The position numbers were made by a program, and so were the translations under genes. This document shows, one piece after another, positions 104 to 4,776 of a stretch of 5,005 nt of DNA. Each line of letters begins with the position of its first letter. Position 1 is the stretch's first letter. Source of the DNA: a virus (Duplodnaviria; Heunggongvirae; Uroviricota; Caudoviricetes); IMG/VR virus record IMGVR_UViG_2698536450_000013, one strand, 5' to 3'. Under the pieces are notes generated by a model, which was not told where the DNA came from, did not search any database, and worked only from the letters and a program-made list of their open reading frames with translations.

Positions 104-2155
104 AGTAAATCAAGAAAGTCTGTAAAATCTGTTGAGCCGGAAATTACCGAACTGGCGAACTCATGGCTTAAATCTTACAGGCTTGATTACAAGTTGCAGA
201 ATGCATCACTTAACGGAGAGATCGATAACGCACTGGACGCTTATTTTTCGAAAAATGGCGGCGCAGGCGGTAATCGTCCCGACGTAAAACTCCTTGTTAA
301 GGACAAATACGGCAAGCAGTATCCCGTTCTCATCGAGTATAAAGGCTACAAGGACAGGCTTATCAGACTTGGCAGCAACGGTATTATTGAGAACAAAGAT
401 GCCAGAAAAGAATGGAATTTTAAAAATATTAATGGATACGCGGTGAATGGCGCAGTCCATTATGCCAACGCACTTCTTCAGTTCACCAATTACCCTGATA
501 TTATTGCTATTGGTATGACCGGCTGGCGCGATGATGGTACAGGCGAACTGCATCATGAAATCGGCGTGTGGTACGTATCAAAGAATAATTTAGGAGCCGG
601 ACAGAAGGTTGGTGAATTCACCGACTTATCGTTCCTTGCTGATAAAAATGTTGATGGATTTCTCAACAAGATAAAGCTGCTTAATCTTCCTCCCGAAGAA
701 CTGGAAAAAATCAAGGCCAGCAAAGAGGAAGAGATAGACACGCGACTTTCCCGTCTGAATAACGATATTTACCAGAATGAAAAGGGGCTTGGTGAAAGTG
801 ATCGTGTTTACCTTGTTGTGGCTACCGTTATTGCAACGTTGGGGATTCCGGGAAAGTTAGCACCGCTGGATAAAAAAGAACTGACCTCTTCAACGGAGGA
901 GGACTTGCGTGATGGTGATATTATTTTCAGGAAAATAAGGAATTTTTTAAGGCTGAAAGCTGTTCCTGAAACAAAAAGAGAAATGATTTTGCGCTCGTTG
1001 CAAAATACGCTGTGGACTGAAAACATTAACAAACCAGTCAACGGTGAAAGCCAGTTAAAGCGCGTGTTTGTTAAAGTTGTTGATGATCTTGGGGAGTATT
1101 ACAAAATTGGACTGACCACCGATTTTACGGGCAAACTGTTTAATGAGATGTATCGCTGGCTTGGATTTACGCAGGACAAGCTCAATGACGTCGTTCTGAC
1201 ACCACCTTATGTTGCCACATTGCTGGCACGACTCGCCAGAGTAAACAAAGATTCCTATGTGTGGGATTTTGCTACAGGTTCTGCGGGATTGCTTGTGGCT
1301 GCAATGAATGAAATGCTCATTGACGCCAGAGAAAATATTCACTCACCGAACGAACTACAACTTAAGGAAGCGCAAATCAAGGCTGAACAGCTTCTTGGCC
1401 TTGAGGTGTTATCCAGTATTTATATGCTGGCCATCCTGAATATGATTTTGATGGGGGATGGTAGCTCGAATATCCTCAATAAAGACTCGCTGGCCGATTT
1501 TGACGGCAAGTATGGATTTGGGAAAACAGGAGAAAAATTCCCTGCGGACGCATTTATTCTCAATCCTCCGTATTCAGCTAAAGGTAACGGCATGATTTTC
1601 GTGCAGAAGGCGCTGTCGATGATGGATAAAGGCTATGCTGCAGTGATTATCCAGAGTTCAGCTGGCACAGGAAAGGCTACGGAGTACAACAAAAAAATAC
1701 TCAAGGAAAATACCTTGCTGGCAAGCATCAAAATGCCTGCGGATCTGTTTATTGGTAAATCAAGCGTTCAGACGTACATTTACGTTTTTCAGGTAAAAAT
1801 TCCGCATAACGCGAAACAGGCTGTTAAGTTTATCGACTTTTCCAATGACGGCTACGCTCGCTCTAATCGCAAAAAGGCAAGAAACAATCTTGTTGATGCC
1901 GATCGTGCAAAAGAGCGTTATCAGGAGGTTGTGGATCTGGTTCACTTCGGGAAAGGTTGCCTTAATATCTTTACGGAGGATGAATATTTTGAGGGAACAA
2001 TCGATCCTGATAGTGGTGAGGACTGGAATCAGACCAGGCCAGTAGATGCTAGGCCAACGCTGGAGGATTTCAAAAAGACGGTAGGTGATTACCTTGCATG
2101 GGAGGTCTCGCAATTACTGAAAAAACAAGGTGAAAACAATTTTGCGGGAAAGTAA
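2..2155 (+). CDS. 5'-partial CDS: gamma-class N6-adenine DNA methyltransferase with an N-terminal putative PD-(D/E)xK nuclease domain (Type IIG/IIB-like or Type I HsdM-like modification subunit)
   Basis: Frame 2 has no stop from the window start to TAA at 2153-2155. The ORF track starts at TTG 194 only because there is no ATG/GTG/TTG earlier; the upstream translation (SVEPEITELANSWLKSYRLDYKL) reads as ordinary protein and TTG 194 has no convincing Shine-Dalgarno. Motifs seen: LTPPYVATLLARLARV followed by VWDFATGSAGLLVAA (SAM-binding motif I, about nt 1258-1300), FILNPPYS (catalytic motif IV, about nt 1552-1575), and the post-NPPY region AAVIIQSSAG...LASIKMPADLFIGKSSVQTYIYVFQV typical of HsdM/MmeI-type enzymes. 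N-terminal RPD (D codon 281-283) ... IEYK (E 335-337, K 341-343) fits PD-x(n)-ExK. Confidence 0.8.
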   Translation, partial: QRPATSDQRPATSDQRPATSDQRPATSDQRPATSSKSRKSVKSVEPEITELANSWLKSYRLDYKLQNASLNGEIDNALDAYFSKNGGAGGNRPDVKLLVKDKYGKQYPVLIEYKGYKDRLIRLGSNGIIENKDARKEWNFKNINGYAVNGAVHYANALLQFTNYPDIIAIGMTGWRDDGTGELHHEIGVWYVSKNNLGAGQKVGEFTDLSFLADKNVDGFLNKIKLLNLPPEELEKIKASKEEEIDTRLSRLNNDIYQNEKGLGESDRVYLVVATVIATLGIPGKLAPLDKKELTSSTEEDLRDGDIIFRKIRNFLRLKAVPETKREMILRSLQNTLWTENINKPVNGESQLKRVFVKVVDDLGEYYKIGLTTDFTGKLFNEMYRWLGFTQDKLNDVVLTPPYVATLLARLARVNKDSYVWDFATGSAGLLVAAMNEMLIDARENIHSPNELQLKEAQIKAEQLLGLEVLSSIYMLAILNMILMGDGSSNILNKDSLADFDGKYGFGKTGEKFPADAFILNPPYSAKGNGMIFVQKALSMMDKGYAAVIIQSSAGTGKATEYNKKILKENTLLASIKMPADLFIGKSSVQTYIYVFQVKIPHNAKQAVKFIDFSNDGYARSNRKKARNNLVDADRAKERYQEVVDLVHFGKGCLNIFTEDEYFEGTIDPDSGEDWNQTRPVDARPTLEDFKKTVGDYLAWEVSQLLKKQGENNFAGK

Positions 2156-2195
2156 ATTCCCCGCTCAGCGATAAATTAAGAAGCGTTGAGTGGGG
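2146..2195 (+). promoter_or_regulatory. Candidate programmed -1 ribosomal frameshift cassette: slippery heptamer G_GGA_AAG (2146-2152), in-frame TAA (2153-2155), 6-nt spacer, 12-bp stem-loop (2159-2170 paired with 2184-2195, 13-nt loop)
   Basis: GGA and AAG are the last two sense codons of the upstream ORF. The -1 frame (GGG AAA GTA AAT...) is the frame of the downstream ORF, which is open from 2134. Stem CCCCGCUCAGCG pairs with CGUUGAGUGGGG (10 Watson-Crick plus 2 G-U); it may extend to 14 bp from 2157. Confidence 0.45.
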
Positions 2196-2214
2196 AGAGT
2201 TCAGGATTGGCGAT

Positions 2215-3309
2215 TTGTTCTATGTGAGCACAGGCTCGCTTATCTCCTCAGGAAGATTAAAACCAGGCAAAATCAAACGTGTTTCAGCAAAGAGCGATCA
2301 AAACGGTATCATCGGAGAGTTTGATACCGAGTTTATGGATGATGCAAGGCATTATGAAAATTTTATAAGCGTTAATTTTTTTGGAGATGCTTTTTATCAT
2401 CCTTATTGTGCCAGCGTAGAAATGAAGGTGCATGTTCTTACATTAAAATCAAGTAAGTCCGACTTTAATGCAAAGCGCGGACTGTATGTTGCCAGTATGA
2501 TTAATAAAGCTTTAAAGGGGCGTTTTAATTATGGTCAACAGTTATCGAGTTCCAAACTCAGAGATGGAGAATATTTCATCTCATTACCAGTGAAAAATAA
2601 TGAAATTGACTGGTTTTTTATGGATAATTATATAGAAGAGCTGGAAGCGGCCCATATAGAAGAGCTGGAAGCATACCTGATAGCTGCTGGGCTGAGTGAT
2701 TACCAACTAACGGAAAAAGATTATCTTATCCTGGAGCATTTTAAAAATATTGAATTTTCAGGCTTTCCTGTTACTGAGTTATTCTCAGTGTGCAATACAG
2801 GAAACATATTGTCTAGAGACATCATAGAAAATAGTGGGGATGTTCCTTATCTTTGTGCTAGCCGTGATAATAACTCTGTTAGTTCTTATATCGCCTATGA
2901 TGACTCACTCTTGGAAAAAGGGAACTGTATTTTTATTGGTGGTAAGACATTCGTTGTAACTTATCAGGAGCGAGACTTTTTTTCAAACGACAGTCATAAT
3001 TTGCGACTCTATGTTAACAATGAGGATGGAAGGACAAAGTTTGCTTATTTGGGCATTATTTCATGTATTTATAGGTCTATTTCACATAAATATTCATGGG
3101 GGGATAGTGTTAGTAATAGAAAAATTAAGAACGATGTTATTTGGTTGCCAGTGAAAAATAAGTCACCTGACTTTTGTTATATAAATGACCTTATTTCAGT
3201 TGTTCATAAGCTTGTCATTAAAGATGTTGTCCAGTACGCAGAACGCAAAATGAACGCATACAGGCAAGCTATAACAAGTCGCGGTTATGATGATTCTGGT
3301 GTCAGTTAA
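2215..3309 (+). CDS. Restriction-modification specificity (S / HsdS-like, BcgI-B-like) protein with two target-recognition domains; true N-terminus probably upstream of 2215 (frame open from 2134)
   Basis: ORF-track ORF of 364 aa ending at TAA 3307-3309. No ATG or GTG start and no Shine-Dalgarno; the listed start is TTG. The upstream in-frame translation VNSPLSDKLRSVEWGEFRIGDLFYVSTGSL looks like the start of a target-recognition domain. A second domain begins similarly (FSGFPVTELFSVCNTGNIL, about nt 2760). A repeated central region (IEELEAAH IEELEAYL) lies between them. The gene is visibly more AT-rich than the tRNA/TerB region. Confidence 0.7.
   Translation: MFYVSTGSLISSGRLKPGKIKRVSAKSDQNGIIGEFDTEFMDDARHYENFISVNFFGDAFYHPYCASVEMKVHVLTLKSSKSDFNAKRGLYVASMINKALKGRFNYGQQLSSSKLRDGEYFISLPVKNNEIDWFFMDNYIEELEAAHIEELEAYLIAAGLSDYQLTEKDYLILEHFKNIEFSGFPVTELFSVCNTGNILSRDIIENSGDVPYLCASRDNNSVSSYIAYDDSLLEKGNCIFIGGKTFVVTYQERDFFSNDSHNLRLYVNNEDGRTKFAYLGIISCIYRSISHKYSWGDSVSNRKIKNDVIWLPVKNKSPDFCYINDLISVVHKLVIKDVVQYAERKMNAYRQAITSRGYDDSGVS
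2630..2672 (+). repeat. Tandem duplication of a 24-bp (8-codon) unit inside the S-subunit central region: two perfect 19-bp copies of ATATAGAAGAGCTGGAAGC at 2630-2648 and 2654-2672
   Basis: Direct reading; the period is 24 bp, so it is in frame, encoding IEELEAAH / IEELEAYL between the two target-recognition domains. Confidence 0.9.
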
Positions 3310-3604: not shown

Positions 3605-3724
3605 GTCCGTAGCGTCAAAGCAGCAATGGCGCTGGGGCGTCGTGCAATTGGCGTTGAGCTGGAGAGCGGGCGTTTTGAGCAGACGGTCAGGGAAGTTCAG
3701 AATGTAGTCAGTCAGAACGGATGA
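3605..3724 (+). pseudogene. 3'-terminal remnant of a beta-class (CcrM/Dam-like phage) DNA methyltransferase gene; N-terminal and catalytic parts absent
   Basis: Frame 2 translation ending at TGA 3722-3724 reads ...AAMALGRRAIGVELESGRFEQTVREVQNVVSQNG*. This resembles the segment that follows the C-terminal SAM-binding motif in beta-class amino-methyltransferases (pattern LGR-x-[FA]-IG-[IV]-E). The expected DPFxGSGTT motif is missing upstream, where the sequence is non-coding-like and contains the terminator. Confidence 0.45.
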
Positions 3725-3755: not shown

Positions 3756-3764
3756 CCTGCGCCC

Positions 3765-3840
3765 GGCCCTTTAGCTCAGTGGTGAGAGCGAGCGACTCAT
3801 AATCGCCAGGTCGCTGGTTCAAATCCAGCAAGGGCCACCA
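3765..3840 (+). tRNA. tRNA with anticodon CAU, resembling enterobacterial tRNA-Ile2 (lysidine, AUA-decoding) more than initiator or elongator tRNA-Met
   Basis: Hand-folded cloverleaf: acceptor GGCCCTT/AAGGGCC, D-stem GCTC/GAGC, anticodon loop CTCATAA, T-stem GCTGG/CCAGC, T-loop TTCAAAT, encoded CCA at 3838-3840. Confidence 0.88.
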
Positions 3841-3847
3841 TCACATA

Positions 3848-3924
3848 CCGCCATTAGCTCATCGGGATAGAGCGTCAGCCTTCGAAGCTGGTTGCGCGGG
3901 GTTCGAGTCCTCGATGGCGGTCCA
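3848..3924 (+). tRNA. tRNA-Arg, anticodon read as UCG (CGA/CGG-decoding)
   Basis: Hand-folded: acceptor CCGCCAT/ATGGCGG, D-stem GCTC/GAGC, anticodon stem TCAGC/GCTGG, loop CTTCGAA (U33, anticodon TCG at 3882-3884, A37), T-stem CGGGG/CCTCG, T-loop TTCGAGT, discriminator T, encoded CCA. Confidence 0.82.
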
Positions 3925-3937
3925 TTATCTGCACACT

Positions 3938-4014
3938 GTGTTGTTAGCTCAGCCGGACAGAGCAATTGCCTTCTAAGCAATCGGTCAGTGGTTAGACTCC
4001 ACTACAACGCGCCA
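3938..4014 (+). tRNA. tRNA-Arg, anticodon UCU (AGA-decoding, rare codon)
   Basis: Hand-folded: acceptor GTGTTGT/ACAACGC (one G-U), D-stem GCTC/GAGC, anticodon stem ATTGC/GCAAT, loop CTTCTAA (anticodon TCT at 3972-3974), T-stem AGTGG/CCACT, T-loop TTAGACT, discriminator G, encoded CCA. Confidence 0.85.
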
Positions 4015-4051: not shown

Positions 4052-4183
4052 GTATCTGCGCCACGCCCGGCGCATATCAACCACAGAGCCTTTCGGGGGT
4101 GAGCTTACGGAGTGGTCAGTGTGACTTTCTCTGTGGGCAGATCGCTCCCGGGCGTTGGCTCACCCACCCAAAGGAACGTCACG

Positions 4184-4615
4184 ATGTTTGGTATTTTTGG
4201 TAAAAAAGCCCGCCGAGCGGCAGTGGAAATTAAAAAGTTTGAGAAACGTGATCTGGCACAGGCGGTTATTAATGCTGCCTATCTGGTGGCCTATGCAGAT
4301 GGTGAATGTGAGGCTTCAGAGAAAGCGAAGATCGAGCAGGTCTTGCGTAACCAGCCTGCGTTGTCCGCGTTTACGTCAGAAATTAATGCGATTAGCGCAA
4401 CCATTATCGGTCAGCTGGATACCAATTTTAAAATTGGTCGTCGTGCCGCGTTACGCGAGATTGAGGATGTGAAACACGATACGCGTGAAGCGGAAGACGT
4501 GCTGGATGTGGCGGTGGCCATTGCCGAAGCAGACGGCGAAATAGAGCCGGAAGAGCGCAAGGTGCTGGAAGAGATTGCCGGTGTTCTGGGCCTTCGTCTG
4601 GAGAATCATCTGTGA
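4184..4615 (+). CDS. TerB-like (tellurite-resistance TerB family) domain protein, 143 aa
   Basis: ATG at 4184 is preceded by AAGGA (4171-4175) at 8-nt spacing; stop TGA 4613-4615. Two acidic ADG motifs typical of the TerB fold: VAYADGECEASEKAKI and IAEADGEIEPEERKVL. The ORF-track start at GTG 4112 adds 24 residues with no ribosome-binding site. Confidence 0.7.
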   Translation: MFGIFGKKARRAAVEIKKFEKRDLAQAVINAAYLVAYADGECEASEKAKIEQVLRNQPALSAFTSEINAISATIIGQLDTNFKIGRRAALREIEDVKHDTREAEDVLDVAVAIAEADGEIEPEERKVLEEIAGVLGLRLENHL

Positions 4616-4623
4616 CGGTAAAA

Positions 4624-4776
4624 ATGCGTCTGGCTGTGGTTGCGCTCCTGCTGTTTCTGGTGGTGATGGTGGACTTCAGCAGTCGGATAATGTCAGTGCT
4701 GGCTGACGGTGTGCTGGTGGCGGGTGTGGTGGTTGTTGCTTTCCCGTTGCTGAAAAAGAAAGCATCAGGCGATTAG
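4624..4776 (+). CDS. Small hydrophobic protein (50 aa, probably a single- or double-pass membrane peptide), possibly co-transcribed with the TerB-like gene
   Basis: ATG 4624 to TAG 4774-4776 encodes MRLAVVALLLFLVVMVDFSSRIMSVLADGVLVAGVVVVAFPLLKKKASGD: two hydrophobic stretches and a basic C-terminus. It starts 9 nt after the TerB stop; an in-frame GTG at 4612-4614 overlaps that stop. No strong Shine-Dalgarno, and it is below the ORF-track length cutoff. Confidence 0.35.
   Translation: MRLAVVALLLFLVVMVDFSSRIMSVLADGVLVAGVVVVAFPLLKKKASGD

Follow-up and report, generated by a model that had tools for sequence, protein, structure and literature searches.

A probable programmed −1 ribosomal frameshift site, conserved across relatives, at the end of the RM gene of a BcgI-like restriction-modification system

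The dnaX gene of Escherichia coli encodes two proteins, tau and gamma, which are made from one mRNA and share their N-terminal part. Its frameshift signal consists of an X_XXA_AAG-type heptamer (A_AAA_AAG) with a Shine-Dalgarno (SD)-like motif about 10 nucleotides (nt) upstream and a stem-loop 5–6 nt downstream. In insertion sequences of the IS3 family (IS911, IS150, IS3), a −1 shift at A_AAA_AAG or A_AAG near the end of the upstream open reading frame (ORF) joins two overlapping ORFs into OrfAB; the downstream ORF lacks an efficient start, and the product of the upstream ORF is found by itself as well. IS911 also has an SD-like sequence ahead of its shift site, an optional element of such signals. 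According to our comparative analysis, a site of this kind is probably used by a restriction-modification system. It lies in a stretch of 5,005 nucleotides of the virus record IMGVR_UViG_2698536450_000013 (Caudoviricetes), which was analyzed as a whole and is called the window below. The site would join the gene of a nuclease-methyltransferase (RM) to a specificity module (S) in the −1 frame. We put at roughly 0.84 the probability that a programmed −1 ribosomal frameshift site like those of dnaX and IS911 is present at this junction, within a BcgI-like RM gene. The RM ORF, the S module, all the junction elements and an upstream repeat tract are on the + strand of the window.

The locus resembles dnaX in its heptamer type, in both flanking elements and in the prediction of two products with a common N-terminal part, and a second cassette found in enterobacterial relatives has the identical heptamer A_AAA_AAG. 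Unlike in dnaX, where the shift leads to near-immediate termination and a short product, the shift here would give the long product, and the gene concerned encodes a restriction-modification enzyme instead of a clamp loader. With the IS3 family the locus shares the predicted shift near the end of the upstream ORF, the lack of an efficient start for the downstream ORF and the predicted occurrence of the upstream product alone; the stimulators of these elements vary and are often pseudoknots, and their products regulate transposition, whereas here co-assembly into one enzyme is proposed. The tail chaperone genes G and GT of phage lambda shift at a few percent and are not known to have a strong downstream hairpin. 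They share with our locus the heptamer G_GGA_AAG (PMC3296357), and are likewise a phage gene pair with a fixed ratio in which the shift makes the longer product, though their function is unrelated.

On the enzyme side, the closest described systems are BcgI, an A2B enzyme (PMC4027205), and BsaXI, an (RM)2S heterotrimer (PMC11997821). As here, an RM protein with an N-terminal nuclease and an N6-adenine methyltransferase goes with a two-domain S, and two RM per S are expected. Their S is an independent gene with its own start, whereas the S of the window has no conserved start and follows a slippery site in the −1 frame. The characterised single-chain Type IIB enzymes TstI and AloI, with a 1:1:1 composition (PMC4027205), and the Campylobacter proteins P0021 and P0059 have the R-M-S domain order of the predicted frameshift product; they exist as the fusion alone, whereas this locus would also yield free RM. 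The predicted pair of products finds its likeness in the engineered HsdM-HsdS fusion of EcoKI ("Type IMS"; Roberts et al., 2012, PMC3510504), which restricts in vivo and cleaves in vitro only with added free M. That fusion is artificial, its parent Type I system has HsdR as a separate subunit, and natural EcoKI relies on a 1-nt overlap with translational coupling and not on frameshifting.

A full-text search, which did not include subscription-journal papers or REBASE notes, turned up no restriction-modification gene for which frameshifting had been described. The accessible part of the 2016 review of frameshifting by Atkins does not mention restriction or methylase, the only DNA methylases listed in the 2013 GeneTack survey are phase-variable ones, and a 2025 preprint on frameshifting does not mention restriction-modification genes. 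The mechanism proposed here is of a known kind; its use to tether an S module to an RM enzyme, conserved across phyla, appears to be novel. Apart from dnaX, insertion sequences and the tail chaperones of phages, very few conserved programmed −1 frameshifts are known from genes of bacteria.

The RM gene, the S module and the junction between them

The window is 100% identical to the E. coli genome Z1323HEC0393. The 0-frame RM ORF (107–2155, frame 2) is open from the start of the window and ends ...NNFAGK-TAA. Its product matches the N6_Mtase domain (PF02384, E = 5.8e-21; Pfam), and a match to VRR_NUC is weak. Residues invariant among relatives are P58 D59 and E77 Y78 K79, which correspond to an N-terminal PD...EYK nuclease motif of the PD-(D/E)xK type, and N486 P487 P488 Y489, the NPPY motif of N6-adenine methyltransferases. 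In PADLOC, RM matches REase_MTase_IIG (Type IIG nuclease-methyltransferase) over its full length with 771 bits, and a model of 637 positions, which corresponds in size to subunit A of BcgI, with E = 1.4e-44; S matches a model of the size of BcgIB (E = 1.3e-24). The S module, read as the −1 frame continuation at 2146–3309, consists of the linker GKVNSPLSDKLRS and two target-recognition domains, with its stop codon at 3307–3309. It comprises 385 codons from 2152, matches PF01420 (Methylase_S) in two stretches as well as Specificity_II of PADLOC, and its 385 amino acids (aa) align with two-domain single-chain homologues. The Methylase_S match starts at residue 18 of the frame that opens at 2134, around position 2185 (Pfam). 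Only hsdM and MAD2, both sub-threshold, were matched in NCBIfam, and a sequence comparison with solved structures gave no relative of either RM or S. Judged by these matches and motifs, the system is a BcgI-like (Type IIB/IIG) restriction-modification system, made of a nuclease, a gamma-class N6-adenine methyltransferase and an HsdS-like S.

The last codons of the RM ORF are GCG (2144), GGA (2147), AAG (2150) and TAA (2153–2155), which places the slippery heptamer G_GGA_AAG (2146–2152) in frame as X_XXY_YYZ. A slip of one base would change the pairing from GGA to GGG in the P site and from AAG to AAA in the A site. The TAA adjoins the heptamer, and the −1 frame reads across it as G-TA A-AT (Val-Asn). 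This −1 frame has a TGA at 2131–2133, is then open from 2134 to 3309, and from the heptamer reads GKVNSPLSDKLRSVEWGEF. Its earliest ATG, GTG or TTG codons are TTG 2215 and GTG 2224, and none occurs before the Methylase_S match. The heptamer is flanked by two putative stimulators. Upstream, the SD-like motif AGGTGA (2128–2133) is complementary to the 3′ end of 16S rRNA and is separated from the heptamer by a gap of 12 nt. Downstream, a hairpin (2158–2196) begins 5 nt 3′ of the heptamer, with a 5′ arm at 2158–2170, a 13-nt loop at 2171–2183 and a 3′ arm at 2184–2196, which codes for V-E-W-G of the first recognition domain. It has 13 bp including two G-U pairs, and its minimum free energy in RNAfold is −23.3 kcal/mol vs −14.0 ± 2.4 kcal/mol for 200 dinucleotide shuffles (z = −3.85), none of which was as stable (0/200).

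Most of this anatomy had been proposed by an earlier, sequence-only reading of the window. It had placed G_GGA_AAG in frame as the last two sense codons before the TAA, had equated the S frame with the −1 frame open from 2134 and without a start before its domain, and had predicted the same junction peptide; on all of these points it agrees with our translation and domain matches. It had also described a 12-bp stem (2159–2170 with 2184–2195) after a 6-nt spacer. The stem is present, and RNAfold adds the pair 2158–2196, while the spacer needs rewording: the 5–6 nt between heptamer and stem include the TAA, and only 2–3 nt separate the TAA from the stem.

The heptamer alone would be weak evidence, because GGGAAAG is over-represented in the window (5 copies vs 0.69 expected) and G_GGA_AAG has a further in-frame copy. 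This copy, at 850–856, lies inside RM at a conserved IPGK motif. We rejected it as a signal and regard it as incidental, its nucleotide sequence not being kept in relatives, and low-level slippage there is possible. No frameshift-element family was found in an Rfam scan of window 1900–2400, in which the best E-value for any family was 0.18 and none reached its gathering score. Conservation, register and partner elements across relatives indicate that the junction signal is far beyond chance.

The annotation of S by PGAP is inconsistent: S is started at GTG 2224, is split into two fragments, one of them a pseudogene, or is started, in another allele, from an RM-overlapping CTG. The genome of the window itself has part of the intact S ORF flagged as a pseudogene (L001 8197–9309). 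In several E. coli relatives (L003, L008, L010), the S frame is broken or is annotated as two half-size S genes. The annotation is unreliable at these E. coli S loci.

Conservation of the junction and its natural variants

Relatives were collected with an RM-profile scan of one genome per species (185,579 species), from which the best 80 RM loci were taken. These include Clostridia, Bacteroidota, Beta- and Gammaproteobacteria, Campylobacterota, Spirochaetota, Lentisphaerae, Gracilibacteria and Saccharibacteria, among others. They make up most of the 95-locus set in which the S frame was counted. Of these 95 loci, 90 have S in the −1 frame, 4 have it fused to RM and in 1 it is degenerate; the same design is present in 26 of 32 viral contigs. 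Bacterial and viral loci that keep the signal number more than a hundred. We compared 85 distinct junctions in total. The 76 in which the stop directly follows the heptamer were selected by this criterion for a gap-free alignment (A3); in the other 9 the stop comes one codon later.

Our results showed that the heptamer is conserved at the nucleotide level. In the 80 best loci, RM nearly always ends ...G-K-stop, with the DNA sequence nnG GGA AAA/G TAG/TAA/TGA. G_GGA_AAR is present in 73 of the 76 aligned junctions, with the Gly codon GGA in 73/73, and the preceding codon ends in G in 74/76. Where a Leu codon precedes the Gly, it is CTG or TTG in 62 of 63 cases, and the single CTA accompanies the variant heptamer A_AAA_AAA; the variants seen in the family are A_AAA_AAG and A_AAA_AAA. 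As an internal control, we used the conserved IPGK motif of the same RM protein in 116 loci, where 39 different NGGNAAR heptamers occur vs the invariant third positions of the junction. The stop after the heptamer is TAG in 48 junctions, TAA in 23 and TGA in 5. In most loci, the −1 frame opens 0–19 nt 5′ of the heptamer. In 3 loci, a TGA stands immediately 5′ of GGG_AAA, and the shift is therefore only possible on the heptamer itself.

The Lys codon of the heptamer (A3 columns 35–37) is AAG mostly in Proteobacteria, Campylobacterota and Flavobacteriia/Sphingobacteriia, and AAA mostly in Clostridia, Bacteroidales and candidate phyla. This choice may be an adaptation to the tRNA-Lys set of the host.

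A hairpin, mostly of 11–14 bp, follows 5–6 nt past the heptamer in nearly all of the 85 distinct junctions. In the alignment, 92.2% of the cells are paired vs 32–47% when the partners are slid, double changes occur in 6 of the 13 pairs, and none of 500 shuffles reached the observed covariation score. One pair links synonymous and coding changes: at columns 51/73, the synonymous Leu codon CTT/CTC tracks Lys AAG or Glu GAG seven codons downstream. The third base of Leu is T in 35/35 sequences with Lys AAG, and C in 23 and T in 14 with Glu GAG, so that a C-A mismatch never occurs (Fisher p = 1.8e-9, uncorrected for phylogeny).

Between −90 and +20, the strongest pairing with the anti-SD sequence is found for 8-mers starting 14–18 nt 5′ of the heptamer (mean −5.7 kcal/mol over the 76 junctions). 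The family consensus of this SD-like motif is GGAGGA with a 9-nt gap to the heptamer, and a 4-nt SD core is present in 63/76 loci. Such a spacing suits −1 stimulation and is too long for initiation at the codon that overlaps the stop. Together with the heptamer and the hairpin, this motif completes the three-element signal known from dnaX. Across the relatives compared, the window site is the consensus form of a family-wide signal, in which the SD-like motif would be a third, dnaX-like element, and thus it is no peculiarity of E. coli. A sequencing error as the cause of the split is excluded by 20 complete E. coli genomes that are 99.8–100% identical across 1950–2350, 19 of them exactly.

Start codons for S are not a consistent feature of the family. 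Between the upstream stop and a conserved Trp codon, 43 of the 76 junctions have no S-frame ATG, GTG or TTG, and the others have them at no consistent position. At the codon that overlaps the stop, 43 loci have ATA, 28 have GTA and 5 have ATG. TTG 2215 of the window encodes Leu, and relatives have TTA, CTA or a different codon in its place. With starts absent from 43/76 junctions and inconsistent elsewhere, independent initiation of S is not conserved, although a few loci and distant relatives may have acquired it.

Natural single-chain homologues were found by a protein search with the hypothetical RM-S fusion. They are 1036–1084 aa long with two recognition domains and about 820–920 aa with one. 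The predicted transframe product aligns with them with 99% coverage and 52–58% identity, and they read through the same junction peptide (…GKVLTPLNEKLKNVEWGEF…). One of them, P0024, reads MGKVLTPLNEKLKNVEWGEF across the junction, where its ...MGKVLTPLNEKLKNVEWGEFRIGDLF is colinear with ...AGKVNSPLSDKLRSVEWGEFRIGDLF of the window. L013 (GGGAAAAGTA) and L123 (GGGAAAAATAG) are in-frame fusions by one extra A compared with the split form. Both keep the heptamer, and L013 keeps the hairpin too; a −1 slip in these loci would give a truncated RM instead, as in dnaX. The Campylobacter-type fusion L014 has neither heptamer nor hairpin. Among 57 full-length cluster representatives (50% identity), 26 are of RM-only length, 26 are one-domain fusions and 5 are two-domain fusions, and the S ORFs linked by the frameshift are mostly 337–549 aa long, which corresponds to two domains. 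A strict rule by which the frameshift goes with a two-domain S and fusion with a one-domain S was rejected; it is a tendency only, as two-domain fusions exist in Campylobacter.

These comparisons bear on the interpretation itself. That the junction is a −1 frameshift site, as the sequence-only reading had suggested, is strongly supported by the conservation, the lack of a conserved start and the fused homologues. Heptamer, adjacent stop and hairpin are kept at the nucleotide level in 76 distinct junctions from many phyla. The same reading had named what would speak against it, namely a conserved ATG and ribosome-binding site for S in homologues, or a single-base error; we found no such conserved start, and the 20 E. 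coli genomes agree across the junction. It had also raised the idea that the two ORFs are fused in frame elsewhere, which is the case in the single-chain homologues colinear with the predicted junction peptide.

A second cassette is present in enterobacteria. Ten E. coli genomes match RM only to about window 2109 and continue with other S genes. In this cassette (class A; E. coli, Salmonella and metagenomic relatives), A_AAA_AAG is followed by one codon, TAA or TAG and a stem AAACUCCCG...CGGGAGUUU, and S is likewise in the −1 frame. One species thereby holds two cassette classes, G_GGA_AAG-stop and A_AAA_AAG-NNN-stop. The single codon of class A is CAG, TTG, CAA, CCG or CGG, which encodes Q, L, Q, P and R in frame 0; in frame −1 the corresponding codons are GCA, GTT, GCA, GCC and GCG (A, V, A, A and A). 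Having only A or V in frame −1, this codon points to selection on the −1 frame right after the heptamer. The frameshift cassette and S appear to be exchanged together as one recombination module. The E. coli and Salmonella alleles L003–L007, L010 and L011 diverge about 37 nt 5′ of the heptamer. In two more distant RM clades (L127 and L128, 36–46% identity), the junction reads A_AAA_AAA GAT TAG or A_AAA_AAG GAC TAA, and S is again in the −1 frame.

Proposed mechanism and alternative explanations

The anatomy of the signal, its deep conservation, the covariation, the lack of a conserved start and the colinearity with natural fusions are observed. From them we infer the slippage itself, its efficiency and the roles of both products. 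In E. coli, G_GGA_AAG is described as a highly shift-prone heptamer (PMC5009743). In the mechanism that we propose, a ribosome whose P site holds tRNA-Gly and whose A site holds tRNA-Lys would be paused on G_GGA_AAG by the hairpin 5 nt downstream, and pairing of AGGTGA with the anti-SD sequence and the adjacent stop would probably add to the effect. A fraction of the ribosomes would slip one base back to GGG_AAA and continue ...FAGK-VNSPLSDKLRSVEWGEF... through both recognition domains, with the predicted junction peptide ...NNFAGKVNSPLSD... The shifted product would be a single-chain RM-S of about 120 kDa (1067 aa counted from position 107). Unshifted ribosomes would stop at the TAA and give RM alone (about 75 kDa). 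Since S would be reached only by slipping ribosomes, it would not be made as a free subunit, and the frameshift fusion is most likely its only form.

One free RM and one RM-S would probably assemble into an (RM)2S-like enzyme of the BcgI type, and the efficiency of frameshifting would set the RM:RM-S stoichiometry. Such a role has experimental precedent in the EcoKI M-S fusion, in BsaXI and in BcgI. A wider proposal is that a large, phylum-spanning BcgI-like clade stands midway between the RM + S and single-chain RMS architectures as a third type, in which S exists only as a frameshift extension and the efficiency fixes the RM-S:RM ratio to give an (RM)2S-equivalent holoenzyme. We advance this proposal tentatively and rate its chances somewhat below even.

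Several observations weigh against a programmed frameshift or against the role proposed for it. In two E. coli-type alleles the heptamer is imperfect (A_GTA_AAG in L008, G_GTA_AAG in L012), and A_AAG alone is kept. A ratio of two RM per S is not obligatory, because two-domain single chains exist (TstI, AloI, Campylobacter). The window copy of RM may be silent (phase-OFF), because the 88 copies of an upstream repeat in its genome put RM out of frame with both available ATGs. Finally, some relatives offer S a start near the RM stop. L032, L057, L058, L083 and L085 read GGGAAAATGA, with an ATG overlapping the TGA stop, and coupled reinitiation is possible in these five loci. L127 (4030–4110) and L128 (1985–2060) have a GTG 6 nt past the stop, preceded in L128 by AAGGA at 9 nt.

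These last loci favor a view in which S is a subunit of its own, translated by termination-reinitiation from the stop-overlapping codon or from a TTG or GTG farther downstream, with the SD-like motif and hairpin serving initiation in an ordinary BcgI-type RM + S pair. BcgI and BsaXI indeed have separate S genes, the distant relative L125 has an ATG directly past the RM stop, and in the window AGGA lies 8 nt 5′ of TTG 2215 and PGAP starts S at GTG 2224. However, the overlapping codon is ATA or GTA in 71/76 junctions, and both are very poor initiators. More than half of the loci (43/76) offer no canonical start before the conserved Trp, and TTG 2215 is not kept. The SD-like motif lies about 15 nt 5′ of the overlapping codon, too far for initiation and right for −1 stimulation. 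Reinitiation also leaves unexplained the invariant GGA, the G-ending codon before it and a conserved −1 peptide that starts exactly at the heptamer. We consider it unlikely as an explanation of the family.

The split could also reflect an on/off state of the DNA itself, with the −1 alleles as inactive copies, either pseudogenes or phase variants of a short A run, and the fusions as the functional ones. The one extra A by which L013 and L123 are fused while the heptamer (and in L013 the hairpin) is kept, the A7–A8 runs of class A alleles, the unrelated hypervariable repeat upstream in the same E. coli gene and some broken S ORFs in E. coli relatives would all be accounted for in this way. Yet the −1 state is that of the large majority (90/95 loci and 26/32 viral loci), with both ORFs intact across phyla, and the junction is shared by 20 complete E. 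coli genomes, of which 19 are identical across 1950–2350. An inactive state would not keep the heptamer, the spacing, the SD motif and a covarying hairpin, and runs of A3–A4 are too short for frequent replication slippage; we hold such a switch to be very improbable. Nor do we give much credit to transcriptional realignment, in which RNA polymerase would slip on the A run and so change the frame; we think it hardly probable at all. Transframe products are known to arise by transcriptional slippage too (a subject within the scope of PMC5009743), and class A cassettes do have seven or eight consecutive A (GAAAAAAAG; CCAAAAAAAAG in L006), but the heptamer of the window and of the consensus has only three or four. 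The conserved features, namely GGG/GGA re-pairing, a hairpin 5–6 nt downstream, the SD-like motif and the adjacent stop, fit slippage by the ribosome. We rate all these alternatives low because each misses the combination of invariant synonymous positions, fixed spacing, covarying hairpin and a −1 peptide starting from the heptamer, which a programmed −1 frameshift would explain together.

Prophage setting, upstream repeat and implications

The window begins with the tail of a (CCAGCGA)n tract (1–103) that leads into the RM ORF, outside the frameshift signal and in the same gene. The full tract in the 100% identical genome has 88 copies (L001 5483–6098), and copy numbers across genomes are 88, 63, 63, 120, 18+, 7+ and 2. 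Past the tract, the RM ORF lacks a start codon of its own. 5′ of the tract are a Shine-Dalgarno sequence and two ATGs in different frames (MILCCQTS... and MLPDQRPATS...). The RM frame is that of the first ATG in L002 and L004, that of the second in L005 and L010, and neither in the window's genome. In strain 2013C-3250 (NZ_CP027380), RM is in the frame of the first ATG, so that its allele would be phase-ON. From this arrangement, the tract looks like a translational phase-variation switch on a heptanucleotide repeat. The opposite strand of the tract is annotated by PGAP as a "YXWGXW repeat-containing protein", which is probably an artefact.

The locus lies within a lambdoid prophage, between the Q antiterminator/hok and a tRNA-Ile/Arg/Arg cluster, and this slot of the RM-S system is the position held by stx in Stx-converting phages. 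3′ of the system, the window holds a C-terminal remnant of a site-specific DNA methyltransferase (3610–3723), the tRNA-Ile/Arg/Arg cluster (3764–4013) and TerB-family and DUF3927 genes (4183–4776).

Annotation pipelines label these loci as "HsdM family methyltransferase" and a truncated, pseudogenised or oddly started "subunit S". If our interpretation is right, the N-termini of S are misannotated in E. coli and probably at other examined loci, and cloning gene by gene would lead to mis-expression. The true product is needed for expressing these enzymes and for interpreting the methylomes of carrier strains, which include Shiga-toxin-related E. coli lineages with the system in the stx slot of a lambdoid prophage.

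For the family, the finding would mean a complete three-element frameshift signal with clear covariation within a widespread group of defence enzymes. Natural two-gene, frameshift and fused forms are linked, some of them one base apart. One mRNA could set the ratio of two catalytic subunits per specificity subunit. Slippage on AAG/AAA depends on how ribosomes pause and on the state of tRNA-Lys; the proportion of complete to incomplete enzyme, and with it the balance of restriction and modification, could therefore follow the translational state of the cell. In E. coli prophages, this control of the ratio would come on top of the separate on/off switch of the 7-nt repeat.

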